This document shows, one piece after another, positions 33,058 to 55,027 of a stretch of DNA of 64,000 nucleotides; within the stretch, counting starts at the first letter, position 1, and every line of letters starts with the position of its first letter. The DNA lies in the NCBI GenBank assembly GCA_963745035.1, contig CAVUVW010000005.1:180882-244881 (forward strand), given 5' to 3'. This DNA comes from an uncultured delta proteobacterium (GTDB lineage: Bacteria; Desulfobacterota; Binatia; UBA9968). The notes beneath the pieces were generated by a model. The model was given only the letters and a program-made list of their open reading frames with translations, was not told where the DNA came from and did no database searches. The translations under genes and the position numbers were made by a program.

Positions 33058-33125
33058 TGTTCAGATCGTTCAAGCTGTTCAAAACGTTCAACTCGTTTCA
33101 ATCGTTCGCTTTCAATCCTTCGAGC
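33058..33125. repeat. 9-bp-period GTTCAA repeat
   Basis: GTTCAR at 33059, 33068, 33077 and 33086. Confidence 0.75.
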
Positions 33126-33420
33126 TTTGATAAGCGGCGGTCTTGGGTTGTGGGCGGGGCCCTCTTTCTTTCGGCTTCACCAGGCGTCCGTGCGTGCCGT
33201 CGCAATAGGGGTGATCTTTGGAGCGCCAGCAGCGGCAGATCGCGATCGTCGTCGGCTCATTAAATTCCAGAACATGCGGCTGTATGTTTGTTCCTTCATG
33301 CGAACCATCGCAAAAAGGCGGGTTCTTTGTCCGGGTGCAGCGGCAATACGCCACGCTTTTCGAAACCTGTTTGACGATCGTCGGTTCGATCAGATCATCG
33401 TAGGACAGCGTCATTTCCAA
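33112..33420 (-). CDS. Tandem CDGSH iron-sulfur domain protein
   Basis: CRC..TKNPPFCDGSH and CRC..SKDHPYCDGTH. Confidence 0.92.
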   Translation of the reverse strand: MEMTLSYDDLIEPTIVKQVSKSVAYCRCTRTKNPPFCDGSHEGTNIQPHVLEFNEPTTIAICRCWRSKDHPYCDGTHGRLVKPKERGPRPQPKTAAYQSSKD

Positions 33421-33689
33421 CTCCTTTATAACCTACTGGTTACTAGGCCCAATTCGGTTCTTTGTCAATTGAGCGCCCCGCGCACCGTTCTCGAGCCATC
33501 AAAATGCGGCCAAGCTTTTGAGCCTTTCTAGTGGCAGAAGCCACACCTACTTTTCCTTTCCACCTGCGATCGAAAAGCTCGCGAATCCTACCGACCTTTA
33601 ACTGTGTCCACACGGTTCATTGCTCGCTAATCGATTTGGCGCGGACAGTTTTCAACTCCGTTTTCAGATACGTAAGATTACTTGAGGGC

Positions 33690-34376
33690 TTACCCTCTCG
33701 GTACCGTCCTTCCTCTCCCCGTCCAGCGGTAAACCAATAAATAAAATGACAGTAACGAATAATTATAGAAAAAATCTTCCAGGGGAATAGTAATGAAACG
33801 CGCGCCCCAGATCGCGTCAGGGTTGTATTGCACCACCGGAAGCGCCGTGAGGACGAAATTCACAATCAGAAATGGTACCAGACAGATGGTGAGCCAAATC
33901 CAGTAGTGGCGGCTTTCGAGCAGGGGCCGGTCGAAGTACAGCGCAACGAGCAGAAAGAGCGCGCACGAGCCCAAGGCTTTCGAGGTGTAGCCTTGGTCGA
34001 AGAAGAACAGACTGCCCGCCGCCAGGATGACGACCGCGGCAAAGACGACTCCTGCCGGCATCCTCAACGTGGTGTGTTTGCTCGTCGCCAAGATTGCTTC
34101 ATAAATAAACAAGCAGGAGTACGGGACCGTAATAAAAAAAAGAATCTCTTCCACGGGAAGGTTTACGACTTTGATTCCGCTGACATAATGCGGATTGAAG
34201 CTCCACTCGCCCCAGTCAGTGGCCATAATATCCCACGCGATGTACTGGCTACCGACTAAGATGATCGCGGCTCCCAGAGCGCGAAAATTGCGGTAGTAGG
34301 CGATTCGGCGATTACCTGTGGCGCAGAGCGGCCCCAAGATGATGCCGAGATTGATCCAAAGATAGGTCAGCAACAT
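33690..34376 (-). CDS. Lycopene cyclase, membrane CrtYc/d-type with two domains
   Basis: WD...W.FN...PVEEILFF and YN....G....IPLEDFFY duplicated motifs. Confidence 0.88.
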   Translation of the reverse strand: MLLTYLWINLGIILGPLCATGNRRIAYYRNFRALGAAIILVGSQYIAWDIMATDWGEWSFNPHYVSGIKVVNLPVEEILFFITVPYSCLFIYEAILATSKHTTLRMPAGVVFAAVVILAAGSLFFFDQGYTSKALGSCALFLLVALYFDRPLLESRHYWIWLTICLVPFLIVNFVLTALPVVQYNPDAIWGARFITIPLEDFFYNYSLLSFYLLVYRWTGRGRTVPRG

Positions 34377-34401
34377 TGGAGAATTCGCAAGTCGGATCGA
34401 G

Positions 34402-35916
34402 TTAAGCAAAAATTCCTTGCAGTGGCACGGAATAAATCGGTTCTTCCTGCAAACCCTGCTTGGCCACGATTGCGTTGGCACACAACAAGCCCGAGGTGAA
34501 CGCCGCTTCCATGAGCATCGCCGGCGTCGGGATCTTGACCCAATCGCCCGCCAGATAGAAATCGGCGACTTCCGTTTTGAATCCCGGCCGGTTCCGGTGC
34601 AAGCTCGTGTGAAAAGCCGTGAAGTCGCGCTTGACTTGCAAATGCTCGCGCAAGATGCGCGCTGTCTGGAGATCGGGAAAGTAGTCATAGAGCTCGGCCA
34701 AAAACGCGCTCTTCAATCTCTTCTCGTTTTCCATGCCGGGCGGCAGCGCGTAGCAGTGCAGCTCATAAACCCCCCCGCCGGTTTCTTTCGCCCACCGCAC
34801 CGCAGCTTTGTCAAATTGATGATAGAAAGTTACCGAGTCGAGCACATCGCGTTTCTCGGTGATGATAAAAACGGGTAGCTGCGGGCTCGTCTGCCGCTCC
34901 AGCCAGATCCGGTAGATCGCGTAACCGTCGGATGGCCGCAGCGAGGCGAGCTCCATGTGAGTTCTTTCCGAAGCGGATTTGATCCAAGGAGAATTGACGG
35001 CGATCTGCCGCGCGCCGACGACGTCGCAGGCTAGAATCAACGAGTCGAAGTCCCTGCCATCGACCTTGAAGCGGCCCTTTGCGTGCTCGGTATGGGTGAC
35101 GCTTTGATTGAGCTCGACGGCAACGTGATGCCGAGCCAGGTGACACCGCAGGGGTTCGATCAGCGCCTCGGCATAATCGGCGTCAAAGTATTCATAGAGC
35201 AGGCCGTGATCGTGGCTCAAATAGAAAAAATGAAAACTCTTCATGAGCTCGGCCGTGCTCAGCTTGTACGCCGGAGCAAAGAACGCCCGCGCGAAAGTAT
35301 GAAAAACGAGGCGGAGGGACGCGGGGAGACGAGCGCGATCGGCGAACTCGTCGAAACTGACGCCGTCGAAGTCGCCGAAGGTTTTCTCTTCGTCGTATTT
35401 GACGAAGTCGCCCATGCGCCAGCTCGCCGGGTTAAGCAGCACGTCGCGCATCCGGTAAAATCCGTTTCGGCCCAAAGAAATGATATTGAGCACTGGCGTA
35501 GTCGCGACATTCTTGAAGCTGAAGCGTTTACCGTCCTGGGTCAGGACCAGGTAATCATCGATCGTTTTTAGGTAGCGGCTAGCGCCGATCTTTTCGAGAA
35601 ACGCTCTAAGGTTGTAATAATGGCGAAAGAAAGCATGAAAGCCGTGGTCGACGTTTTCAACGCTTCCGTCCGGGAAACGCACCGGCCAGCAGCCCGTCTT
35701 GCCGCCCAGGTAGGAATTCTTTTCGAACAGCGTCACTTGGAAACCGCGCTCACCCAATAGAGCCGCCGCACCGAGGCCTGCGAGTCCACCTCCGATCACA
35801 GCGACTTTGTGAGAGCCGTGAAAATCCTTCGGCTTGCTCGGATCCACCGCATTGACGAGGGTAACGTAGCCGTCGAGGCGCTTCTTGATATATGGCCGCA
35901 GCAATCGTTCGAGCAT
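34402..35916 (-). CDS. CrtU-like FAD-dependent carotenoid ring desaturase/methyltransferase
   Basis: GGGLAG, GFHAFFRHYYNLR, VYELHCYAL and AGDWV..AMLMEAAFTSG resemble actinobacterial isorenieratene synthase; crt context. Confidence 0.75.
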   Translation of the reverse strand: MLERLLRPYIKKRLDGYVTLVNAVDPSKPKDFHGSHKVAVIGGGLAGLGAAALLGERGFQVTLFEKNSYLGGKTGCWPVRFPDGSVENVDHGFHAFFRHYYNLRAFLEKIGASRYLKTIDDYLVLTQDGKRFSFKNVATTPVLNIISLGRNGFYRMRDVLLNPASWRMGDFVKYDEEKTFGDFDGVSFDEFADRARLPASLRLVFHTFARAFFAPAYKLSTAELMKSFHFFYLSHDHGLLYEYFDADYAEALIEPLRCHLARHHVAVELNQSVTHTEHAKGRFKVDGRDFDSLILACDVVGARQIAVNSPWIKSASERTHMELASLRPSDGYAIYRIWLERQTSPQLPVFIITEKRDVLDSVTFYHQFDKAAVRWAKETGGGVYELHCYALPPGMENEKRLKSAFLAELYDYFPDLQTARILREHLQVKRDFTAFHTSLHRNRPGFKTEVADFYLAGDWVKIPTPAMLMEAAFTSGLLCANAIVAKQGLQEEPIYSVPLQGIFA

Positions 35917-35951
35917 GGCTCAGGAGAATAAATCGATGGCGCCGTCTCAGC

Positions 35952-37025
35952 TCACGCGGCATTTCCCGCTTGCCGCTGAATGAACTGCTGCACGCGGCGA
36001 ATCGTGCGGTTTACTTCGAAGGGCTCGCGCTCGGGATTCTCATCGAAGGCAGCCTGTTCTTCTTCGATCATCACAGTATCCTGGCGGATAAGATTCCGCA
36101 GGAGCCTGCGGGCGACGTTGTTTAGCGCGCGCTTGATCAGCCGGCGCACAGAGGGGGGAGCCTTCTGCAAAACTGCGAACTTTGCGAGAGAGGTGTAGTG
36201 GATCAAGTAGGCGTCTGTAAGACGCTCGTTGGCCGGACAGATCAGACAGAAAATTTTGAAGTCGTCGCCCAAAGTCGCGCGCCAGTTGGGATAATCGTAG
36301 GTCACCGTCAAAGGCGCGGCGTGGAGCTTGCGCAGCCATGGAATAAAGAGCTGCAGAACGGAACCGAGATCGGTTACGCGGTAGCACGTCGTGGCGTCGT
36401 ATTTCGCGGTTACCTGATCCTCCGTTTGCACGACTTCGCGCAACGCCTCAGCGGTCCACACCTGGTATCGGGCATGCAGGCGCCCGTGATACATGTCCAT
36501 GAGATTTTCCACCAGATAGGAGAAATGGGCGCGGCACGTCAGGCGGGCGACGCTGTGAATTTCGTTGAGATCATCCCACTCTTCCATCAACGTAGGCGCT
36601 ACACTCTCAGACCGGGCTGGATCCCCAGGGTAAATCCAGATAAAGCCGTATTTCTCGATGACCGGAAAGGATCTGACGCCACAGTCCGGCAATGTCGGTT
36701 TTGACGCCAAATGCGGAATATGAACGCAGCGTCCCCGAGGATCGAAGCGCCAACCGTGGTAGGCGCATTCCACGCTGCCATCGACGATCCGCCCGTGACT
36801 CAGCCGCACCAAGCGATGCGCGCAGCTGTCTTCGATCGCGCGTATGGTGCCATCGATGCGAAATAGCACGACGCGCGTTTTCCAGATTTCGCGCCCGACC
36901 AAGCGGTCTCCGATCTCAGAAGACTTCGCGATCATGTACCAACGATCAGGATTTATCCGGGCGCGTCGCAGACGACTGCTCGCGGAGTCCTGGCGCATAG
37001 GGCCTAGCGCATCTTCGAGTTTCAT
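35952..37025 (-). CDS. Rieske non-heme iron oxygenase
   Basis: CAHR...CAYHGW Rieske site; ENLMDMYHGRLH mononuclear Fe site; C-terminal QD. Confidence 0.92.
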   Translation of the reverse strand: MKLEDALGPMRQDSASSRLRRARINPDRWYMIAKSSEIGDRLVGREIWKTRVVLFRIDGTIRAIEDSCAHRLVRLSHGRIVDGSVECAYHGWRFDPRGRCVHIPHLASKPTLPDCGVRSFPVIEKYGFIWIYPGDPARSESVAPTLMEEWDDLNEIHSVARLTCRAHFSYLVENLMDMYHGRLHARYQVWTAEALREVVQTEDQVTAKYDATTCYRVTDLGSVLQLFIPWLRKLHAAPLTVTYDYPNWRATLGDDFKIFCLICPANERLTDAYLIHYTSLAKFAVLQKAPPSVRRLIKRALNNVARRLLRNLIRQDTVMIEEEQAAFDENPEREPFEVNRTIRRVQQFIQRQAGNAA

Positions 37026-37172
37026 AGGTGTCCGGATTGCCTTGCTGATCGCGCGTTGCCGAGAATCTTCAAATGTCGCCCTACCAACTGCTTTGGAGCG
37101 CGGCGTCCGCAAGCTGCCATGATTTGTCTCATTTCCTGCTAGCAGATTTCGGGATCTTGTTCTAACCGGTTC

Positions 37173-38102
37173 TCAGAGTTGCGCTGAATTGGGCGTAGGC
37201 TGCTTGCGGCCGACCGAGCGAAGAATGGGCAGCGATTTCATGATTTTTAAGACGGAGCGTTCCTTGTCCTTGACTTCGAGCATGACGTCGATATCGAGAT
37301 CTTTTATCTGACGATAGAAATCGTGGAATTTCTCCACACTTATCGACTTGGAGTGAGTGCCCGCGGGCTGCCCGGGCCACTGGTTGGAATAGTGGATTTT
37401 TACCCGCCCATCGCGCCTGCGCCAGGTCGCCGCGCTACGCTTGATGATCGCGCGCAATGAGTCTGAACGGAGCGCCGGATTCCAGCGGTGATGAAACACA
37501 TCGAACACGACGGGAACTCCGATGGCTTGTGAGGCGCTGAGCGTATCAGTGACTGTGTAGCAATGCTCGTCGTTTTCGATCACGAGCCTGGCCTTGATGC
37601 GGTCATCGAGCTCCGCGGCATTTTGGATGAACCTTTTTAGACTTTCCGTCTTGTCGCCGTAGATGCCGCCCAAGTGGATAACGGTTTTGTGCGTATCATC
37701 GATTTCCAAGGCATCGAGAAATGTGGTGTGGTAGGCGAGCTCTCTGACGCTGTTTTCCACGACTTCGCGCCGGGGTGAATTGAGGACGGTGAACTGCCCG
37801 GGATGCATCGAGACGCGCAGTCGGTTTGCGCGTATGTAGCTGCCGATGCGCTCGAGCTCAGCTCGCAATATCGTCGGCCAAGGGACCTTGTTGATCTGAT
37901 GGGAGGCGAACGGAACCACGTCCGAAGTGATGCGAAATAGCTCGATGCCGTGCGTCACATTCCATTCCAAAATCCGTTGCAGCGCGGCGAGGTTGGAAGT
38001 GGCCAACTCGAGAATCTTTTCCGAGGTCGCGTTCCTTAATCGACAAGTCCGATTCGGCGAAATCAATCGGCTGTTAATGCAGGCGTAACCAATGCGAATC
38101 AA
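37173..38102 (-). CDS. uvsE: UV DNA damage repair endonuclease
   Basis: RIGYAC, FRITS, SMHPGQFTVLNS, IHLGG, IENDE, FDVFHH, MLEVKDKE. Confidence 0.95.
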   Translation of the reverse strand: MIRIGYACINSRLISPNRTCRLRNATSEKILELATSNLAALQRILEWNVTHGIELFRITSDVVPFASHQINKVPWPTILRAELERIGSYIRANRLRVSMHPGQFTVLNSPRREVVENSVRELAYHTTFLDALEIDDTHKTVIHLGGIYGDKTESLKRFIQNAAELDDRIKARLVIENDEHCYTVTDTLSASQAIGVPVVFDVFHHRWNPALRSDSLRAIIKRSAATWRRRDGRVKIHYSNQWPGQPAGTHSKSISVEKFHDFYRQIKDLDIDVMLEVKDKERSVLKIMKSLPILRSVGRKQPTPNSAQL

Positions 38103-38116
38103 TGCTAATGCTCCCT

Positions 38117-38617
38117 TCAGTGCCCGAAGCGATCGTTTAAAATGGATTCATGCCACACTTCGGATGAAGCGTCGGGCGTGAAAAGTTTTTGCAGCGCAGC
38201 GCGACGGTGAGCAAAAATTTTCGCCAGATCCGGCGCGACGAGAAGCTTGTGAATCAAACCACCTCCCGGGACCGCGTACTCTACGTCATCCCGGACGATC
38301 GTACCGCCGTCGCCATTGACGAAAGTGTGCTCGTGCACCCAAAGCGAGTAGGGACCTTTGATCTGGCGGTCGACGAAGCGGAGGGGCGGCTCCCATACCG
38401 CGATCTCGCTTTGCCAGCGGAGCGGAATCCCGCGCAGCCTGAGACGATAATCGAGTAAAGTTCCGCGGCTCATTTTAGTCTCGAACGAAGTGAGAATTTC
38501 AAAACGCAGCCAGGCCGGTGTGATGCGCTCGAGATTTTTTGGATCGGCGAAAAACTCAAACACTTGTTCGCGCGGTCGGGGCAGCCACAGTTCGGACTTG
38601 AGATGATGGGTTTTCAT
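38117..38617 (-). CDS. SRPBCC family protein
   Basis: VFEFF..NL..ITP, FVDRQIKGPY..WVHEH.F. Confidence 0.9.
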   Translation of the reverse strand: MKTHHLKSELWLPRPREQVFEFFADPKNLERITPAWLRFEILTSFETKMSRGTLLDYRLRLRGIPLRWQSEIAVWEPPLRFVDRQIKGPYSLWVHEHTFVNGDGGTIVRDDVEYAVPGGGLIHKLLVAPDLAKIFAHRRAALQKLFTPDASSEVWHESILNDRFGH

Positions 38618-38631
38618 TTCGATTCGTTGTT

Positions 38632-39594
38632 TCAGACGTAGTTGCGCGGTATCAGCTCCTTCGGGGCTGGATCCAGATACATCTGATCGGCGAGATACGC
38701 GACCTCGTATTTTTTTACATAATGTTGCATCAACGTGATCGGCGCGATTAGCGGCAGGAGTCCGGTGCGAAACTCGCGGATCAATTCCACCAACTCACGT
38801 CGCTCGGCCGCCGATAGCTCTTCGGAAAAGTAGCCCATGAGATGATCCAACACGTTGGCGTGCTTCTTGGCGCTTGCGCGAACGGCCAGGCCCTCCATAA
38901 AATTTTGCCCGTATTCTTCGTACGTGGCACGCAACGAGTTCTTTCCAATTCCTGCGACCAGACGGCCCAGCCGCCGGTAGTGGCGCTCGCTATGCGCCAG
39001 CAGGAGAAACTTATGGCGGGTGTGAAAGTCGACGAGAACACGGGCCGATTTCGCTCCCGCCAGAGCGCTTTGCCAGCGATGGTAGGCGAACACTCTTTCG
39101 ACAAAGTTTTCCCGCAGCGCCAAATCGTTCAATCGGCCTTCTTCTTCGACCGGCAAAAGTGGTAGGGTTTTCATTACGGTGGCGGCAAAGATCCCGCGAC
39201 CGTGGCGGCTCGGCATGTTCTTGGCGTCATAAAGGCGCACGCGCTCGATGCCGCAACTCGGCGAGTTTTTTTTGAATACGTAGCCGGATAGTTTCAGCTC
39301 GGCCAGGTCTTTAGTTCGGATTGCGGCGAATCGCTTCATTGCCATGGTCCAATCCTTACCCGAACGCTCGGCGATCATTTTCGGATCGCTCCCCGATCCG
39401 ACCAGGCGCACGCTCTCACGCGGCACGCCCATACCCACTTCGATCTCCGGACAGACCGGAACCCACTCGACAAAACGGCCGAGAGTTTGACACAGGAAGG
39501 CGTCCTGTTTATGCCCGCCATCGAAGCGAACTTTTTCCCCTAATAGGCAGGCGCTGATTCCCAGGCGCGGCGAAACACTAAAGTTATTTTTCAT
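38632..39594 (-). CDS. DUF523/DUF1722 (YbgA-like) protein
   Basis: GISACLLGEKVRFDGGH, VCPE, KKNSPSCG, EEEGRL, FH..HK..LLAH. Confidence 0.92.
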   Translation of the reverse strand: MKNNFSVSPRLGISACLLGEKVRFDGGHKQDAFLCQTLGRFVEWVPVCPEIEVGMGVPRESVRLVGSGSDPKMIAERSGKDWTMAMKRFAAIRTKDLAELKLSGYVFKKNSPSCGIERVRLYDAKNMPSRHGRGIFAATVMKTLPLLPVEEEGRLNDLALRENFVERVFAYHRWQSALAGAKSARVLVDFHTRHKFLLLAHSERHYRRLGRLVAGIGKNSLRATYEEYGQNFMEGLAVRASAKKHANVLDHLMGYFSEELSAAERRELVELIREFRTGLLPLIAPITLMQHYVKKYEVAYLADQMYLDPAPKELIPRNYV

Positions 39595-39672
39595 CTGGTG
39601 TTTACTATTTAAAACATTACTGGTAATAAAGTCAATTATACTTAACTTTCAAATGCGCATTTGGGAAGTTAG
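39595..39672. promoter_or_regulatory. AT-rich divergent promoter/operator region
   Basis: 78-bp gap; palindromes ATTAC-TG-GTAAT (39616-27) and CAAATGCGCATTTG (39650-63); TATACT on + at 39637; TTGACT on - at 39635-30. Confidence 0.7.
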
Positions 39673-40578
39673 ATGAAAATTATCGTCACGGGTGGCACTG
39701 GCTTTATCGGATCCAAATTGGTCGACCGCCTGTGGAATCAATTTCACTCGTTGGTTCTTCTCAGCCGCAAGCCGCCGGCAGAGGTGGGCGTCACCAAGAA
39801 GCAATGGTTTGCCTGGAATCCACCGCAAGGTGGTGAGTGGGAAAGAGCGGTTGACGGCGCCGACGGCATCATCAACCTTGCCGGCGAGCCGATCGCCGGC
39901 AAGCGCTGGAGCAAAGAGCAGAAAGAAAGACTGCGCGCAAGCCGCATCGATGCCACCCGCGCGCTCGTCAGCGCCATCGCGAAGGCGCAGGTCAAGCCCA
40001 AGTTCCTGCTGAACGCCTCAGCGGTCGGCTATTACGGCGCGCATGGCGATGAGACGCTGACCGAGGCCAGCCCGCCGGGCAGCGATTTTTTGTCCCGGCT
40101 ATGCGTGGACTGGGAGGCGGAGGCGCGGAAGGCTGAAAACCACGGGCTGAGAGTCGCGACCGTTCGAACCGGCATCGTTCTCGGCAAAGGACAGGGCGCG
40201 CTCGCCAAAATGGTTCCGCCGTTCAAGATGTTTGCGGGCGGACCGTTGGGCTCCGGCAAACAATACATGCCGTGGATTCATATCGAAGATGAGATCGGCT
40301 TGCTGCTGTTTCTCAGCGAGAATGAACAGGCCCGCGGCGCGTTCAATGCGACCGCGCCGAATCCGGTCACCATGGAGGAGTTTGCCAAGGCTTTGGGCGC
40401 AGTCTTGAACCGCCCGTCGTGGGTCTCCGTGCCGCCGTCGGCGCTGGCGCTCATCGCCGGTGAGATGGCCGATATGCTGCTCACCGGACAACGCGCCTTG
40501 CCCGATGCGGCGACCCAGCTCGGTTATGTTTTCACATACTCGACGATCGGCGCCGCCTTGCAGTCACTGCGCCTTTGA
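39673..40578 (+). CDS. TIGR01777 family NAD-dependent epimerase-like protein
   Basis: TGGTGFIG, INLAGEPI..RW, SAVGYYG, WIHIED, NATAP. Confidence 0.93.
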   Translation: MKIIVTGGTGFIGSKLVDRLWNQFHSLVLLSRKPPAEVGVTKKQWFAWNPPQGGEWERAVDGADGIINLAGEPIAGKRWSKEQKERLRASRIDATRALVSAIAKAQVKPKFLLNASAVGYYGAHGDETLTEASPPGSDFLSRLCVDWEAEARKAENHGLRVATVRTGIVLGKGQGALAKMVPPFKMFAGGPLGSGKQYMPWIHIEDEIGLLLFLSENEQARGAFNATAPNPVTMEEFAKALGAVLNRPSWVSVPPSALALIAGEMADMLLTGQRALPDAATQLGYVFTYSTIGAALQSLRL

Positions 40579-40592
40579 TTTCGTGACAATCG

Positions 40593-41525
40593 ATGAATGA
40601 AATTCGACCACTCAGAAACCGCGCCGAACGCAAAATTAATTCGCAAGCTTGGCAGGGCGAATATGCGCGCGCGCTCAGCGCGGGTGACGCGGAAGCCGCC
40701 AACCGGGTAATCGAAGACTTGTTGGCGCAGCGCTGTTCTCTTAGTGACATCTACTTGCAGGTGATCACCCCGTCGCTCGTCAGTATCGGCGATTTATGGT
40801 GCCGCAAGGACATCACCATCGCGGAGGAGCATCTGGCGACGCAGTTGGTTTTGCATCACTTGGATCGGCTGATCTCGACGTTTGCGTGGCGCGATCGATT
40901 ATCTTCTTACCGAATCTTGGTGGGCTGCGTCGAAGGCGAGCGCCACTGGATCGGCGCGCGCATGTTCGCGGATCTCTGTCTCAGCCACGGCTGGTCGGCG
41001 GAATTTCTCGGCCCGGACGTTCCGAACGATGCGCTGATTGACATGGTCAGCAAACGCAGCCCGCAAGTGGTGGCGCTATCGGCGACCATGCTGGTGGGCG
41101 CCGAGCAGGCGCAAGCGCTGGCACGAGCGCTGGCGACCCTGCCAAGCCCGCCGCGCGTCATCCTCGGCGGGCAGGCGATCACGGACAGCGCGATGGCGCA
41201 GTCGTTTGGTTCTGGCTGCGCGATTGCACGCGACGCGATCGAGGGCCTGGAACATGCTCTTCAATTTCTTCGCAAGCATCGTCCAAAAGTTGTTCTCAAA
41301 GAGTATCTATTGGCGCTCGGCCGCCGCGTTCGTGATCTGCGTTTAAAAAAAGGCTGGACCCAGGAGCAGCTCGCTGAAGGAGCGCGGGTGACGCGAGTCT
41401 GCATCGTGGCGGTCGAGGGCGGCAAGCAGAATGTCTCGATGGATATTGTCGTTCGGCTGGCCAATGCTCTGGGAGTGTCGCCGCAAGCTCTTTTGAACGA
41501 CGGCGGCGGGACGGATCAAGTTTAG
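40593..41525 (+). CDS. Cobalamin-binding (CarH-type) transcriptional regulator with C-terminal XRE HTH
   Basis: W69-x9-E79H80 cap motif; E116-x-H118-x2-G; VVALSAT; VILGG; then LGRRVRDLRLKKGWTQEQLA...VEGGKQNVS...LANALGV. Confidence 0.88.
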   Translation: MNEIRPLRNRAERKINSQAWQGEYARALSAGDAEAANRVIEDLLAQRCSLSDIYLQVITPSLVSIGDLWCRKDITIAEEHLATQLVLHHLDRLISTFAWRDRLSSYRILVGCVEGERHWIGARMFADLCLSHGWSAEFLGPDVPNDALIDMVSKRSPQVVALSATMLVGAEQAQALARALATLPSPPRVILGGQAITDSAMAQSFGSGCAIARDAIEGLEHALQFLRKHRPKVVLKEYLLALGRRVRDLRLKKGWTQEQLAEGARVTRVCIVAVEGGKQNVSMDIVVRLANALGVSPQALLNDGGGTDQV

Positions 41526-41535
41526 GGAGAAGCAA

Positions 41536-42660
41536 ATGAAAAATTCAGCTCTGAATGTGGCGGAGATCGTGCCGGCGGCGCTCATCATGGATTCCGATCG
41601 ATGGATGAACGACACGGAGCGAGAACGTTCCGAATCGACCGGTGCCAACGGACATCTTCCGGGCCCGGCAGAGTGGCCGGAATTGCTGGGCGCGAGGCCA
41701 GGCGCAGCGGTTGAATCGGTTTTGCGCCGGGCGCTGATCGAGCCCATCGAAGAGTTGACTTCGATACGCGGCAAGCGTATTCGCGCCCACTTGGTGACGT
41801 TCAGCAACCGTTTGTTGACTGGCGACCAGCCGTATTCCATGGCGGCGGCGAGCCGATGCCATTTGGCGGTCAACGCTATCGAATTCATTCATGCCGGCTC
41901 ACTTATCGTCGACGATATCGAAGATGGTAGTCGGATGCGACGCGGTCGGCCAGCGCTGCATGTAAGCCACGGTATGCCGGTTGCGCTCAACGCCGGGAAC
42001 TGGCTTTACTTCTGGCCGTTCGCTTTGTTTAAAGAACTCGCGCTGCCGAAAGACCAACTCTTGTTTGTGTACGAGTCTTGCCACCGCACGTTGCTGCGCG
42101 CCCATCTTGGCCAGGCGATCGATCTCGGCGCGAAGGTCGGGACCTTGCCGCAGGCGCAGGTGGAAGAAGTTTGCCTCACGTCGATGCGGCTCAAAACCGG
42201 CGCGCTCATGGGATTTGCCGGCCTGCTGGGAGGCGCCGTTGCCGGTGCGCCGAACGCGGTGCTCTCGATCATCGACGATTTCGGCCGCGATCTTGGCGTT
42301 GCGCTACAGATGCACGACGATCTTGGCAATGCGACCGGCGGATGCGAGCCGTCCAAGCGCTACGAGGATTTCACTCTGGCGCGTCCCTCGTGGGTTTGGG
42401 CCTGCGCCGCAGCGAACAGCACCCGCCGGTCCTACGAAGAATTTCTCACGGCGGTAAGTCGATTGCCCGACCGATCCGACTCTCGAGGCGTGGTTTTCCC
42501 ATTACGACATTATCGAGCGGACGCGTCAAAGCGCGAGAGACTATCTCGATTTGAGTTTCACCACCTTGAAAACTCGTCTGGAGAAGGCCGGCGTAAATTG
42601 GTCACACGGCGTTTTTGACGAGTTGCGCGAACTTGGCGAGGAGATAGCGCTTGCTTATGG
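41536..42660 (+). CDS. crtE: Geranylgeranyl diphosphate synthase (frameshift near 42480; end approximate)
   Basis: RGKRIR, IHAGSLIVDDIEDGS..RRG, KTG, LQMHDD; directly upstream of crtI. Confidence 0.8.
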
Positions 42661-44198
42661 ATAAGACCCGCGCGGCGGTCATCGGTTCGGGCTTTGGCGG
42701 ATTGGCGCTCGCCATTCGCCTGCAGGCGGCCGGCTGCCGGACGATCATTTTTGAAAAGCGTGACAAGCCCGGCGGGCGTGCTTATGTGTATCGTGATCAA
42801 GGGTTCAGCTTTGATGCCGGTCCCACAGTGATCACCGCGCCGGATTGCCTGAGAGAGCTATTTTCTCTGGCGGGCAAGTCGATGGACGACTACGTTAGGC
42901 TTCTGCGCGTGAACCCGTTCTATCGCTTGTTCTGGCAGGATGGTTTCCAGTTCGACTATTCCGACGACGCGGCGCTGATCGAGGCGCAGATCGCCAAAAA
43001 ATCGCCACGCGACGTGGAAGGCTATAAAAGATTTCTCAGCTACTCGGAAGAAGTCTTTCGCGAGGGCTATGAAAAGCTCGCCCATGTGCCGTTTCTCAAC
43101 TGGTCGAGTATGGTGGCGGTGGCTCCGCAGCTGCTTCGATTGAAAGCCTACCGATCGGTCTACAGCATGGTCGCCGAGCACATAGCAGACCCGCACCTGC
43201 GTCAGCTCTTTAGCTTTCACTCACTGCTGGTCGGGGGGAATCCGTTTACGACCACGTCGATCTATACTCTTATTCACTATCTGGAACGAAAATGGGGTGT
43301 GTTCTTCCCCGTAGGCGGCACCGCGGCGCTGGTGGAGGCGCTCGTCAAACTGTTCGTCGATCTTGGCGGTGAGTTGCGGCTCAACGCGGAGATCGCCGAG
43401 ATCGAGACCGCGGGCGGCGCGGTAAAAGCGGTGATAGATCAATCGGGACGGAGAGAAGAGTGCGATCTCGTCGTGAGCAACGCCGATGTGGTGCACACTT
43501 ATGACGCGCTGCTGCGCAAGGAACCGGCCGCATCAGCGATGCGCGGGAAGCTTGCACGCTCGGCCTATAGCATGTCCCTGTTCTTGATCTACTTCGGCAC
43601 CCGGCGACGCTATCCGAATCTGCTGCACCACAATATTATCTTCGGTCCGCGCTATCGCGAGCTGCTCGCCGATATTTTCGCGCGCGGCCGCCTGGCCGAC
43701 GACTTTTCGCTCTATTTGCACGCGCCTACCCGCTCGGATCCGAGCTTGGCTCCTCCCGGATGTGAAACCTTTTATGTGCTTTCGCCGGTGCCTCATCTAG
43801 GTAAGCTGGCGATCGATTGGCAGAGCGCGGGACCGGCCTATGCGGAACGAATCCTCGACTATCTGGAGCGTCACTATATGCCGGATCTGCGCCGGGAGAT
43901 CGTCACCCAGAGGATTTTTACGCCGCTGGATTTCAAGACCGAGCTCAATGCCCATCTGGGCTCGGCGTTCTCGCTCGAGCCACGGCTTACACAAAGCGCC
44001 TACTTTCGCGTGCACAACCGCGACAAAAATATTCACGGTCTTTACTTCGTCGGCGCCGGCACGCACCCGGGCGCAGGTATTCCCGGCGTAGTCAATTCGG
44101 CCAAGGCGACGGCGACGATCATTGCCAGCGACTACAAAATCGCGCTCGCGCGTGGCTATGCCGGCGTTGCAGAGGTTTTCCTATGCATGACGCCTTGA
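42657..44198 (+). CDS. crtI: Phytoene desaturase
   Basis: GSGFGG, FDAGPTVIT, LLVGGNPF, QSAYFR.HN, GAGTHPGAGIPGV. Confidence 0.96.
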   Translation: MDKTRAAVIGSGFGGLALAIRLQAAGCRTIIFEKRDKPGGRAYVYRDQGFSFDAGPTVITAPDCLRELFSLAGKSMDDYVRLLRVNPFYRLFWQDGFQFDYSDDAALIEAQIAKKSPRDVEGYKRFLSYSEEVFREGYEKLAHVPFLNWSSMVAVAPQLLRLKAYRSVYSMVAEHIADPHLRQLFSFHSLLVGGNPFTTTSIYTLIHYLERKWGVFFPVGGTAALVEALVKLFVDLGGELRLNAEIAEIETAGGAVKAVIDQSGRREECDLVVSNADVVHTYDALLRKEPAASAMRGKLARSAYSMSLFLIYFGTRRRYPNLLHHNIIFGPRYRELLADIFARGRLADDFSLYLHAPTRSDPSLAPPGCETFYVLSPVPHLGKLAIDWQSAGPAYAERILDYLERHYMPDLRREIVTQRIFTPLDFKTELNAHLGSAFSLEPRLTQSAYFRVHNRDKNIHGLYFVGAGTHPGAGIPGVVNSAKATATIIASDYKIALARGYAGVAEVFLCMTP

Positions 44199-45136
44199 CG
44201 TCTCAGGTCAGGGCGGCGCTCGACGAGTGCCGCTGGATGATTCAGAAAGGCTCGAAGAGCTTTTCGCTGGCGGCGCGGCTGTTCGACCCGGCGACGCGCG
44301 ACGCGGCGTTTTTTCTGTACGGCTGGTGCCGCTACTGTGACGATCAGGTGGACCAAGTCGGCGCATCGGTGACTCCGGAGGAGCTCAACCGGCGTCTCAA
44401 GACGCTCAAAGATAAAACCGACGCGGCGTTTTCTTTTGCGCCCCAGCGGGAGCCGGTCTTCGTCGCTTTGCAGCATATCGTCCATCGCTACGACATTCCG
44501 TCCCACTACGCTTTGGAGCTGATCGAGGGCATGGCGATGGATGTGCGTGCCACTCAGTACACGAGCTTGAAGGAACTCTTGCTTTATTGCTATCGAGTCG
44601 CGGGCACCGTCGGTTTGATGATGGCGCACGTAATGGGACTACGCGACGAGGGTGCGCTCAAGCACGCAGCGGATTTGGGTATCGCCATGCAGCTCACCAA
44701 CATCGCGCGGGACATCATCGAGGATGCCTCGATGGGGCGAATTTACCTGCCTTCGGCATGGCTCAGCGAAGCCAGGATCGCGCCTGAAGCGATTGCCGCG
44801 CCGGAGAATCGCGAGAAGCTGGCGATCTTGACTCTCCGACTGCTGCGCGAGGCCGAGCGCTACTACCGCTCTGGCGATGAAGGCTTGTGGCATCTTTCCT
44901 TTCGCTCGGCGTGCGCGGTGGCCGCGGCGCGCAACGTTTATTCGGAGATCGGCGCTTTGCTGCTGAAAAAGGGCGCGCGCGCGTGGGACGAGCGGACCTA
45001 TGTTACCGGAGCGCGTAAGCTTCGCGTGGTTTTGCGTGGGATACTGAGCCTACTCCGCTCAGTGCCGGCGCGGCTATTTAAGCCGTGGTCGCCGGCGCCG
45101 CTGCGCGTCGTCTGGAAGGCGTCCAATATTCAATAG
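44183..45136 (+). CDS. crtB: Phytoene synthase
   Basis: GSKSF, WCRYCDD, YCYRVAGTVG, QLTNIARDI.ED...GRIYLP. Confidence 0.96.
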   Translation: MHDALTSQVRAALDECRWMIQKGSKSFSLAARLFDPATRDAAFFLYGWCRYCDDQVDQVGASVTPEELNRRLKTLKDKTDAAFSFAPQREPVFVALQHIVHRYDIPSHYALELIEGMAMDVRATQYTSLKELLLYCYRVAGTVGLMMAHVMGLRDEGALKHAADLGIAMQLTNIARDIIEDASMGRIYLPSAWLSEARIAPEAIAAPENREKLAILTLRLLREAERYYRSGDEGLWHLSFRSACAVAAARNVYSEIGALLLKKGARAWDERTYVTGARKLRVVLRGILSLLRSVPARLFKPWSPAPLRVVWKASNIQ

Positions 45137-46202: not shown

Positions 46203-48116
46203 ATGACCAGGTTGTTGGATGGGGTTGAATTTCCGCACGACATTCGGCGCTTTTCCGTCGAAGAGCTGAACCAGCTCGCGGCGGAAATCAGAGAGGAAGT
46301 CATTTCCGTCGTCTCAGAAGTCGGCGGTCACTTTGCTTCGACCCTTGGCGCCGTGGAGCTGACTCTGGCGCTTCACTATGTTTTCGAGACGCCGGAGGAC
46401 CGCATCGTGTGGGACACCGGACATCAAGCCTACGCGCACAAACTGCTGTGCGGCCGGCGCGATCGCTTGGCGACGATCCGCCAGTTTGGCGGCTTGAGCG
46501 GATTTTTGAGCCGGGAGGAGAGTGAATACGATGTCTTCGGCGCCGGTCATGCCGGCACCTCGATCTCGGCGGCACTCGGCATGGTCGAAGCGAAATATCT
46601 CGAGGGCTCGCCGCGCAAAGTCGTCGCGGTGATCAGCGACGGCGGCTTGAGCGCCGGCTTGACCTACGAAGGCTTGAACTCGGCCGGACATCTCGATCGC
46701 GACCTCATCGTGGTGCTGAACGACAACGAGCATTTCATCGACCCGCGGGTCGGCGCGGTATCGTCTTTTCTCAGCAAGCAGTTCACCACCGATCTCGGCG
46801 TGCGCTTGCAGAAAAATCTCTCCAACTTGCTGAAGAGTTTGCCGAGCGGCGAGAATTTGAAATACATGGCGCGCAAGATGCGCGACTCGTTCCTGAGTCT
46901 GGTGACCCCGGGTTTTCTTTTCGAGAGTCTGGGCTTTCAATACGTGGGTCCGATCGACGGTCATAACCTGAGCGAGATGATCGCGACGTTGGAGAACATC
47001 AAAAAAGTCGACGGACCAATCTTGGTCCATGTGATGACCAAGAAGGGCAAGGGCTATGCGCCGGCGGAAGCTGATCCGATCAAGTATCACGCCGTCACGC
47101 CGTTTCACGTGCTCACCGGCAAAGCCAAAAAGGAAAAGGGGCCGATTCCGACGTATACCGATATTTTCGGTCAGTCGATCGTTCGCATCGCCAAAAAAAA
47201 CCCCAAGGTGGTGGGCATCACCGCGGCGATGGGCAGCGGCACGGGCATCGACAAGCTCGCGCGCGAGATCCCCAAGCGCACCTACGACGTCGGCATCGCC
47301 GAGCAGCACGCTGTGACCTTCGCCGCCGGCATGGCGACCGAGGGTTACATCCCGGTGGTCGCGATCTATTCGACGTTTTTGCAGCGCGGCTACGACGAGA
47401 TTCTCCACGACGTGTGCCTGCAAAATCTCCACGTCGTCTTCGCTCTGGACCGCGGCGGCCTGGTCGGCGCCGACGGCCCGACCCATCATGGCGTGTTCGA
47501 CTTTGCCTACCTGCGCCCGATGCCGAACATCGTGGTCATGGCGCCCAAGGACGAAAACGAATTGCAGCATATGCTGGCGACCGCCGTCGCGCACGACGGC
47601 CCGATCGCGCTGCGCTATCCGCGCGGCGAGGGTTGGGGCGTTGCGCTCGACGCCGAGCCGCATCGGCTGGAGATCGGCAAGGCCGAGTTGTTGCGCGACG
47701 GTGCCGATATCGTGATCGCTGCGATCGGCCACACCGTTATGCCGGCGCTCAAAGCCGCGCAGGATCTGGCGCCGCTCGGCATCAACGCCGCTGTAGTGAA
47801 CGCGCGTTTCGTCAAGCCGCTCGATAAAGAATTGCTCGGCTCGCTGCTCGGCCGTGTGCCGCGTTTGATCACGGTGGAAGACCACGTTACCGCCGGCGGC
47901 TTCGGCAGCGCGGTGATCGAATTCCTCGCCGACGAGGGGATCCAAGGAGTCGAAGTCCGGCGGCTCGGCGTGCCCGACCGCTTCATTCCCCACGGCACCC
48001 AAGACGAGCTGCGTAAGCTCTGCGGCTTTGACAAGGATGCGATCGCCCAGGCGGTGCTGCAGATGGTCCGGCGCAAGAAGCGAAGCAGGGAGGGATGGGA
48101 AAGAGGGAGCGCTTAG
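46203..48116 (+). CDS. dxs: 1-deoxy-D-xylulose-5-phosphate synthase
   Basis: [40 protein letters not shown]. Confidence 0.98.
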
Positions 48117-48833
48117 ATCTCTTGCTGCTTGAGCGAGGGCTCGTCGACAGCCGGGAGAACGGGCGGCGTAAGATCTTGGCCGGCGACGTGCTCGTCAATG
48201 ATCAAGCCGTGACCAAGGCCGGCAGCTTGGTCGATGCGGGCGCCACGATCCGTCTCAAACCGGCGCCGCGCTACGTCAGCCGCGGCGGCTTGAAGCTCGA
48301 AAAGGCGCTCAAGGAATTCGCCGTCGATGTGAGCGGCAAGACCGCCCTCGATGTCGGGGCGTCGACCGGCGGCTTTACCGATTGTTTGCTGGCGCACGGC
48401 GCCGCGCGCGTGATCGCCGTCGACGTGGGCTACGGCCAGCTCGATTGGAAGCTGCGCAACGACCCGCGCGTGGTGGTTTTCGAGAAGACCAATATCCGAT
48501 ATCTCGATCGAAGCTCGCTATCCGTCATTCCTCGAGTTCGCCACCATCGACGCTTCTTTTATCTCGCTCAAGCTGATTTTGCCGTGCGTCAAACAGCTTC
48601 TCGCGGCACGGCGTGAGATCATCGCGCTGATCAAACCCCAGTTCGAAGTGGGCAAAGGCAAAGTCGGCAAGGGGGGAGTGGTGCGCGCGGCGGAAGAGCA
48701 CGCCCGGGTGATCGGCGAAATTCGAGATAGCGCCACCGTCCTCGGCTATGAGACCGTGGGCGTCACCGAGTCGCCGCTGCTCGGGCCCAAAGGCAACAAA
48801 GAATTCTTGATTTATCTGCGCGCCCCGGCCTAA
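48095..48833 (+). CDS. tlyA: TlyA family rRNA methyltransferase (frameshift near 48530)
   Basis: S4 domain RLD; [35 protein letters not shown]. Confidence 0.93.
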
Positions 48834-53095: not shown

Positions 53096-54975
<1,880 letters not shown>

Positions 54976-55027
54976 ACCCGCCGCTATTTCGTTGCGATCT
55001 TTCCATTTTCTAGACTAAGATCCATAC

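Follow-up and report, generated by a model that had tools for sequence, protein, structure and literature searches.

A conserved cobalamin-sensor/XRE fusion regulator with a candidate palindromic operator at a carotenoid and UV-repair locus of Binatia

Locus and protein architecture

In the window (the whole stretch of DNA that was analysed, 64,000 nucleotides), a 78-bp gap at 39595–39672 separates the crt operon from a divergent RudS/uvsE operon (Table 1). We found that the regulator gene is one uninterrupted, stop-free frame on the plus strand and that it lies just ahead of crtE, crtI and crtB, which follow in that order, with 10 nt between the regulator and the ATG of crtE; the initial annotation had read both points in the same way. 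Compared with a 375-aa homologue (locus L003), crtE carries a frame shift near 42470 and its listed C-terminus is out of frame. Elsewhere in the window, rpoD (about 53100–55000) and a TlyA-like gene (48095–48833) look split, as expected of long-read indels. On the minus strand, gaps of 35–60 nt point to co-transcription of the Rieske, oxidoreductase and lycopene cyclase genes with uvsE. In loci L003–L015 we found no match to uvsE, the Rieske protein, the carotenoid-type FAD oxidoreductase, the lycopene cyclase or the CDGSH genes (33112–38102), which suggests that these genes are a recent addition to the divergent operon. RudS genes are often found within light-responsive operons (PMC11417400).

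Table 1. Features of the regulator locus (positions in the window; strand not applicable,.)
Feature	Position	Strand	Basis or conservation
Rieske protein, carotenoid-desaturase-type FAD oxidoreductase, lycopene cyclase (uncertain start codons)	33690–37112	-	same strand as uvsE
UV-damage endonuclease UvsE	37173–38102	-	TIGR00629 over cut-off
SRPBCC/polyketide-cyclase-like protein	38117–38617	-	annotation
RudS-type DUF523/DUF1722 tRNA 4-thiouridine desulfidase, first gene of divergent operon	38632–39594	-	divergent in 11/13 syntenic loci
Candidate operator 1, 20-bp imperfect palindrome, clade consensus ATGTTgAnTAtTnATAACAT	39598–39617	.	conserved in 15 non-redundant loci
Candidate operator 2, clade consensus AaGTCAAcTATAntTtACtT	39629–39648	.	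31 bp from operator 1; 15 non-redundant loci
yfcH/TIGR01777-family NAD-binding protein, first gene of rightward operon	39673–40578	+	annotation; upstream in 11/13 syntenic loci
Regulator gene, cobalamin-sensor/XRE fusion, 310 aa	40593–41525	+	single stop-free ORF; architecture common to 120/120 listed homologues
Four-helix cap (B12-binding_2, aa 23–91), G66xxW69, C70, E79H80	40659–40865	+	Pfam, motif positions
Rossmann cobalamin domain (aa 107–200), G115-E116-x-H118-x2-G121, G140xxxP144, S163, G192G193	40911–41192	+	Pfam, motifs
Short helical linker (aa 226–243) into XRE helix 1	41268–41321	+	AlphaFold model
XRE/Cro HTH, C-protein type (aa 241–302), recognition helix T267-R-V-C270	41313–41498	+	Pfam, PDB matches, conservation
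crtE-type polyprenyl synthase	41536–42618	+	directly downstream of regulator in 13/13 syntenic loci
crtI phytoene desaturase	42657–44198	+	TIGR02734 over cut-off; ATG start
crtB phytoene synthase	44183–45136	+	annotation

The 310-aa protein matches three Pfam domains above cut-off, B12-binding_2 at residues 23–91 (E 5e-14), B12-binding at 107–200 (E 1e-16) and HTH_3 at 246–299 (E 1e-11); there is no match to a MerR domain, and HTH_3 stands at the C-terminus instead. An AlphaFold model built from 117 homologues (mean pLDDT 86, pTM 0.70) contains the four-helix cap, a five-strand Rossmann fold and the XRE helices, and its top Foldseek matches are photocobilins, CtMerR and TtCarH. In the model, a short kinked helix links the last Rossmann helix to XRE helix 1 (helices 215–229 and 231–253, with pLDDT down to 65 at 231–240), and the distance from G193 to L239 is 43–46 aa in 116 of 135 family sequences.

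We confirmed the sensor residues named in the initial annotation (W69, C70, E79, H80, E116, H118, G121, S163-A164-T165 and G192-G193). Of these, E116, H118 and G121, S163-A-T165 and G192G193 match the cobalamin motif D/ExHx2G...SxT/V...GG as defined in PMC9304148. The four SignatureFinder elements GxxW, EH, GxxH and GxxxP, which were validated for light-responsive cobalamin domains (PMC11796333), are all present as G66/W69, E79H80, G115/H118 and G140/P144; the full set occurs in 99 of the 121 close homologues and 94 of the 135 distant ones. W69 is invariant in the 121 close homologues, and H118 is found in all 121 and in 133 of the 135 distant sequences. The EH of Wx9EH is kept in 110 of 121 close homologues and is EK or QK in the other 11. 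This EK/QK sub-branch (P0088, P0091, P0097, P0099, P0101, P0106, P0107, P0111, P0113, P0115 and P0119) retains W-C, and its cofactor specificity may differ.

In the alignment, the residue after the Trp, C70, falls on Ala132 of TtCarH in its H132A entry 8c35 and on the Arg, Gln or Tyr of CtMerR, SasPcob and AbDPcob, and thus occupies the position of TtCarH His132, as had been proposed. The weight that had been placed on this cysteine did not hold, since the position is variable among characterised B12 photoreceptors, with Arg, Gln or Tyr in proven ones (PMC11796333), and is Cys in only 7 of 135 wider-family sequences, the others including His (52), Glu (18), Ala (15) and Ser (8). We therefore rejected Cys70 as a class-defining residue; judged from the alignments, it characterises the Binatia-type clade alone, where it is present in 121 of 121 sequences. 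In TtCarH, His132 drives both the ligand switch and the break-up of the tetramer (PMC10442372), so by analogy the invariant Cys70 may plausibly ligate cobalt in this clade.

Within the protein, conservation is highest in the XRE domain, with 86% mean identity as compared to 60–62% for the sensor. Its best PDB matches are C.AhdI and C.BclI, and C.Esp1396I entries are among the best matches of the XRE domain of a DRTY-type relative. The recognition helix reads TRVC in the 310-aa protein and DRTY or DRAY in most relatives (DRTY in 58 of 135), with C270 standing where the DRTY helix has Tyr. C.Esp1396I reads its operator layout with R35, T36 and Y37; R35 reads the outer TG, T36 and R46 read GAC/GTC, and the central TATA is bent (PMC3488213). 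The equivalent of R35, R268, is kept in 134 of 135 sequences, and the position of R46 is Gln here and in 116 of 135 family members.

Spread of the fusion and its gene neighbourhoods

The initial annotation had allowed that the fusion might be an indel artefact. We rejected this because full-length fusions dominate both close and distant homologues: PF02607, PF02310 and PF01381 occur together in all 120 listed of 353 matches (52–94% identity), and a profile search of 50%-identity clusters, in which 149 of the 150 proteins listed were new, gave 134 distant cluster representatives that are full-length fusions (at least 270 aa). Gly193 of the Rossmann domain and R250, E275 and N280 of the XRE domain are present in 134 of these 134. 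Two related long-read copies (L013 and L014) are broken inside the B12 part and not at the B12-XRE junction, and in L014 four neighbouring genes are broken as well.

Fusion proteins carry the labels Binatia, Chloroflexota/SAR202, Myxococcota, Bipolaricaulia and Uabimicrobium, and the named members are SAR202/Chloroflexota, Ca. Bipolaricaulia and Uabimicrobium amorphum; the label Candidatus Binatia is found on one of the 120 listed homologues and two of the genome loci. Atlas clusters at 0.93–0.96 are mostly from Chloroflexota, Myxococcota and Binatota, and a Bacillota cluster at 0.80–0.82, matched irrespective of domain order, is a lead only. JGI annotation already names such proteins corrinoid protein/XRE regulators. 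The fusion is patchy within the genus, where it is found in 18 of 30 genomes, and crtI is found in the identical 18, as expected from physical linkage and kinship alone. We found no full-length match in 30 further relatives, no full-length fusion among the listed 150 (of 282) matches from 300 other genomes of the phylum (seven candidates scored each), and no match covering 80% of the query in 72,556 plasmids. Two copies of the locus in the Binatia style (C367 and C401; L147 and L005) are present in assembly G361, which bears the title Ca. Eisenbacteria; none was found at 1e-60 in 150 other genomes of its phylum, and mis-binning is likely. Cobalamin domains of the Wx9EH type without XRE occur in many phylum genomes (L048–L066, frames of about 210–410 aa). 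A tree of sensor domains, 40 from fusions and 20 from non-fusion proteins, was made by a quick method and has its only CarH on a long branch. Of the 56 inner branches in this tree, 30 are open, and 19 non-fusion domains form one branch at 99%; the fusion may, on these sequences, have one origin.

We compared 14 genome loci, of which 13 are syntenic and one (L016) is a 43-aa chance-level match. For more distant relatives we used the best 80 of 163 metagenome loci, many of them redundant, with 26 representative ORFs annotated. A light-linked neighbour (RudS, yfcH/SRPBCC, heliorhodopsin, LOV-like, photolyase or crtI) is present in 31 of the 80 and in none of the other 49, and among loci of at least 6 kb it is present in 21 of 50; heliorhodopsin occurs in six, a LOV-like gene in four and photolyase in two. 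In the marine loci L079, L080, L085, L088, L091 and L144, heliorhodopsin is divergent from the fusion operon, and its regulation by light there is possible. In the DRAY group (L096–L123) we found no light-linked neighbour, and the fusion adjoins DnaJ-like and methyltransferase genes. G037, a genome of the same order that has no crtI match, carries a truncated 177-aa carH of the MerR type (C1, about 1969350–1969900; L040/L149) that is flanked by dxs and yfcH, with RudS on the far side of dxs; similar places can thus be taken by either type of regulator. Both B12 regulator types occur in one locus in L068 (2162–11926), where a canonical MerR CarH and the XRE fusion are accompanied by LOV (NCRFLQG)-SpoIIE, fasciclin and RudS genes and a photolyase match.

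In the genome of the window, PF02607 is found in only one other gene, a 1349-aa frame of methionine-synthase size, and thus we found no canonical CarH that could run the crt operon. A PduO-type adenosyltransferase is encoded, and neither BtuR nor methylmalonyl-CoA mutase was found in this 93% complete genome. As a co-occurring marker, the adenosyltransferase is uninformative, since 26 of the 30 genomes of the genus have it, whether or not they have the sensor. Seven RNA runs contained 5–19% of the words; in four of them, scattered pieces cover both operons and the intergenic gap at a depth below about 3 in the best run, and these pieces may be DNA.

Candidate operators and a proposed light switch

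The intergenic stretch at 39595–39672, singled out earlier as a target for DNA-binding assays, contains two conserved palindromes, and their spacing is 31 bp in 13 of 15 loci and 30 and 32 bp in one each. To look for such sites independently of the window, we ran a palindromic expectation-maximisation (EM) search on the upstream DNA of distant loci. The input was 71 of 80 loci (eight lacked upstream DNA and L143 was held out as Binatia-type), 70 of them long enough and 52 non-redundant. The search returned the palindrome aTGTnGAATATATTCnACAt de novo, with a log-likelihood of 231 as compared to 30–35 for three local shuffles. Under the aTGTnGAATATATTCnACAt matrix, 44 of 52 regions score above 10 bits as compared to 2% of shuffled regions, and 13 of 42 two-site regions have a spacing of 30–33 bp as compared to a mean of 0.1 in 200 shuffles. 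When this matrix, which had not seen the window, was applied to the full 64 kb, the best site was 39598–39617 at 12.1 bits, followed by the next at 7.5 bits; operator 2 is weak under it (2.4 bits). A pair at 30–32 bp was found in 12 of 19 held-out Binatia-type regions, and the region of a MerR-CarH locus scores –4.6. Across the whole genome this matrix is not unique to the locus: it gives five pairs, among which the window pair is second and the other four are weak, and 12 single sites of at least 12 bits, among which site 1 is 11th. A wider regulon was not upheld: with the clade matrix, which is circular as it includes the window sites, there is no second good pair (47.5 as compared to 19.3 for the next). 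In L010 (458–1937), a second RudS-SRPBCC copy has merely degenerate remains of both palindromes upstream.

The palindrome accompanies the fusion gene in neighbourhoods that are otherwise unrelated, and the consensus or the spacing of the sites is not the same in the DRTY, DRAY, DRSY and TRVC groups. Among 91 site pairs, 27 lie at 30–32 bp (17 at 31 and 7 at 32), 7 at 28 and 6 at 62 bp. When spacings of 26–35 bp were searched by helix group, we found 31 bp in 12 of 13 DRAY loci, 28 bp in 5 of 8 DRSY loci and 30–32 bp in 18 of 31 DRTY loci, counts that overstate independence because the loci are kin. The layout of the sites (outer TG, inner triplet, central TATA) matches that of C.Esp1396I sites.

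Promoters could not be called with confidence. In the window gap we found no consensus sigma70 promoter; there is one 9/12 match on the minus strand, together with TATAAT-like –10 hexamers that lack a matching –35. TTGACT-like hexamers lie inside both operator sites, and part of the palindrome conservation could be promoter sequence. A sigma70-like match occurs in 25 distant upstream regions and is overlapped by a site in 13 of them (a count with no null). In L067, L068 and L084, which have strong sigma70 promoters, the site starts 8–9 bp into the promoter and covers the spacer and the –10.

Taken together, these data suggest that the protein is probably an adenosylcobalamin-dependent, light-released repressor that is CarH-like in action and not a MerR-family CarH. 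From the motifs, folds and sites we infer cofactor binding, a light response, binding of the protein to these sites, repression and the oligomer state. In the dark, the N-terminal module would bind adenosylcobalamin, with His118 below the cobalt and Trp69, Glu79 and His80 capping the adenosyl group, and the bound cofactor would keep the protein oligomeric. The C-terminal XRE domains, as C-protein-like dimers, would then sit on the two 20-bp palindromes 31 bp apart, and the occupied gap would block both divergent promoters and the regulator's own expression. Light would cut the Co-C bond and loosen the oligomer, and the crtE-crtI-crtB and RudS-SRPBCC-uvsE operons would be expressed. A spacing of 31 bp amounts to three helical turns and so places both sites on one face of the DNA; this arrangement suits a dimer of dimers, as in the CarH tetramer, and also two independent dimers. 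The complete signature and the best structural matches, which are proven B12 photoreceptors, speak for this light-released repressor. Against it, TtCarH needs His132 to break up its tetramer (PMC10442372) and the fusion has no His there, 49 of the 80 distant loci show no light-linked neighbour, 11 of 121 close homologues have EK or QK in place of EH, and the searches for BtuR and methylmalonyl-CoA mutase in the genome found neither.

The signal could instead be the availability, form or redox state of cobalamin, possibly through Cys70 and the other cysteines of the clade, or light and redox together, with the sites still bound by the protein, and we regard this as unlikely. Within the close clade, conservation reaches 95% or more in four of the six columns with a Cys consensus (C70 121/121, C112 121/121, C129 120/121, C270 119/121), C270 replaces the Tyr of DRTY, and TtCarH too requires oxygen to complete its switch (PMC10442372); however, Trp and Gly are conserved to a similar degree in the clade, few wider-family sequences have the cysteines (C70 in 7, C129 in 1 and C270 in 1 of 135), and the redox sensing that had been suggested is unsupported, as no result points to a redox response. 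The neighbourhoods bear on the question from both sides: more than half of the distant loci have no light-linked neighbour and the family has members in SAR202, a largely dark-ocean group, while in the window the fusion has genes for carotenoids, UV repair and s4U removal as neighbours, and heliorhodopsin, LOV-like and photolyase genes occur at distant loci.

Somewhat less probable than a cobalamin or redox signal is a light-gated activator or dual regulator in the style of C proteins, in which a first dimer activates and another represses, or DNA is bound by the lit form instead. Since XRE domains can form dimers by themselves, binding need not be lost in the light, and the –10 hexamers without a –35 in the window gap are as found at activator-dependent promoters. 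C proteins do move from activation to repression once a second dimer binds (PMC3488213); the sites here, however, are 31 bp apart, whereas those of the 35-bp OL+OR operator lie next to each other (PMC3488213), and the site positions in L067, L068 and L084 have repressor geometry. We consider it very improbable that B12 is not the protein's own chromophore and a partner controls it, as a LOV protein controls class II LitR and CarS controls CarA, or that the palindromes belong to another regulator. CarA (PMC9304148) and class II LitR (PMC9758184) are B12-independent relatives, and four distant loci have a LOV-like gene near the fusion; yet CarA lacks the Trp of Wx9EH (PMC9304148), whereas W69 and H118 are kept here in 121 of 121, and the palindrome stays with the fusion gene where the neighbours are unrelated and changes along with the recognition helix. 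The light-released repressor remains our preferred reading. As a more tentative extension of it, about which we are doubtful, the fusions may be a second, independently wired family of B12 photoreceptor repressors across several uncultured phyla, acting in the dark as a dimer of dimers on palindromes three turns apart, with a Cys thiolate replacing His132 in Binatia and a His/Cys-ligated light state that is possibly reversible or redox-tuned; the literature examined holds no description of such a light state.

Comparison with known regulators

The fusion regulator is real, conserved and, as far as the literature searched goes, uncharacterised; it is a CarH variant with a testable candidate operator. 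The initial annotation had called it a distinct class, and what stands of this is a real, conserved non-MerR architecture, an intact adenosylcobalamin signature and a linkage to carotenoid and UV-protection genes. The claim to a distinct class does not stand in full, since fusions of light-responsive cobalamin domains to HTH and other outputs at both the N- and the C-terminus are already stated in PMC11796333. We found no study of a cobalamin-sensor/C-terminal-XRE protein in the literature searched, and Fig. S9 and the network of PMC11796333 may already show the architecture. In the accessible portions of other sources, MerR, ANTAR and HTH_17 fusions are listed (PMC8717448), 35 of 37 proteobacterial B12 regulators are MerR proteins (PMC3532121), HTH is not mentioned (PMC10979010), and a Binatota survey describes carotenoid genes and mentions neither CarH nor cobalamin (PMC8262859).

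The DNA-binding B12 photoreceptors in the literature examined are all of the N-terminal, MerR/CarH kind, and the fusion family indicates that a B12 sensor can drive a C-terminal XRE domain, with a predicted operator that allows a heterologous reporter test. This bears on whether CarH-type switching needs MerR geometry and His132, and on the control of photoprotection in uncultured soil Binatia and marine Chloroflexota. An orthogonal green-light switch could be built on a short palindrome that has no relation to the CarH repeats, and the free C-terminal output suits fusion designs.

We compared the protein with CarH and class I LitR using T. thermophilus CarH (PDB 5C8D/5C8E) and the CarH proteins of M. 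xanthus, B. megaterium and Cystobacter. The fusion shares with them the four-helix cap and Rossmann domain, the Wx9EH and ExHxxG motifs and the same fold, as well as a carotenoid-gene setting between divergent operons. In contrast to CarH, which has an N-terminal MerR winged helix with RxWERRY, the DNA-binding domain here is a C-terminal XRE; the candidate palindromes are 31 bp apart, whereas CarH binds tandem 11-bp direct repeats (TnnACA; PMC9304148); and Cys70 stands in place of TtCarH His132, which gives a bis-His light state that is common and not universal. The missing MerR domain and a candidate operator that is not a direct repeat place the fusion outside the CarH family (PMC9304148, PMC8156234), and the fusion protein scores 76 bits under NF052513, for which the cut-off is 400.

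The sensor has its best sequence and fold matches in CtMerR (8JBS) and the photocobilins SasPcob and AbDPcob (8J2W, 8J2Y), which are proven green-light B12 sensors without the His132 ligand. Like the photocobilins, the fusion has further domains C-terminal to the sensor; theirs, however, are bilin-binding and cyclase domains with no XRE, and the DNA-binding domain of CtMerR is N-terminal. AerR and PpaA are stand-alone B12 antirepressors of pigment genes that have no DNA-binding domain and act through CrtJ/PpsR. Unlike corrinoid methyl-carrier proteins of the MtbC/MetH type, the fusion has Wx9EH and crt neighbours in place of a methyltransferase context, and it scores far below cut-off in the NCBIfam corrinoid models.

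The XRE domain resembles the restriction-modification (R-M) controllers C.AhdI, C.BclI and C.Esp1396I, which are its best PDB matches, and the candidate operators have a layout similar to theirs, with an outer TG and a central TATA. The recognition helix is DRTY or HRTY in those controllers and TRVC here, and the R46 position is Gln here. The controllers are stand-alone proteins with no sensor that control R-M genes from adjacent sites, whereas here the domain is fused to a B12 sensor and crtE is the next gene in 13 of 13 loci.
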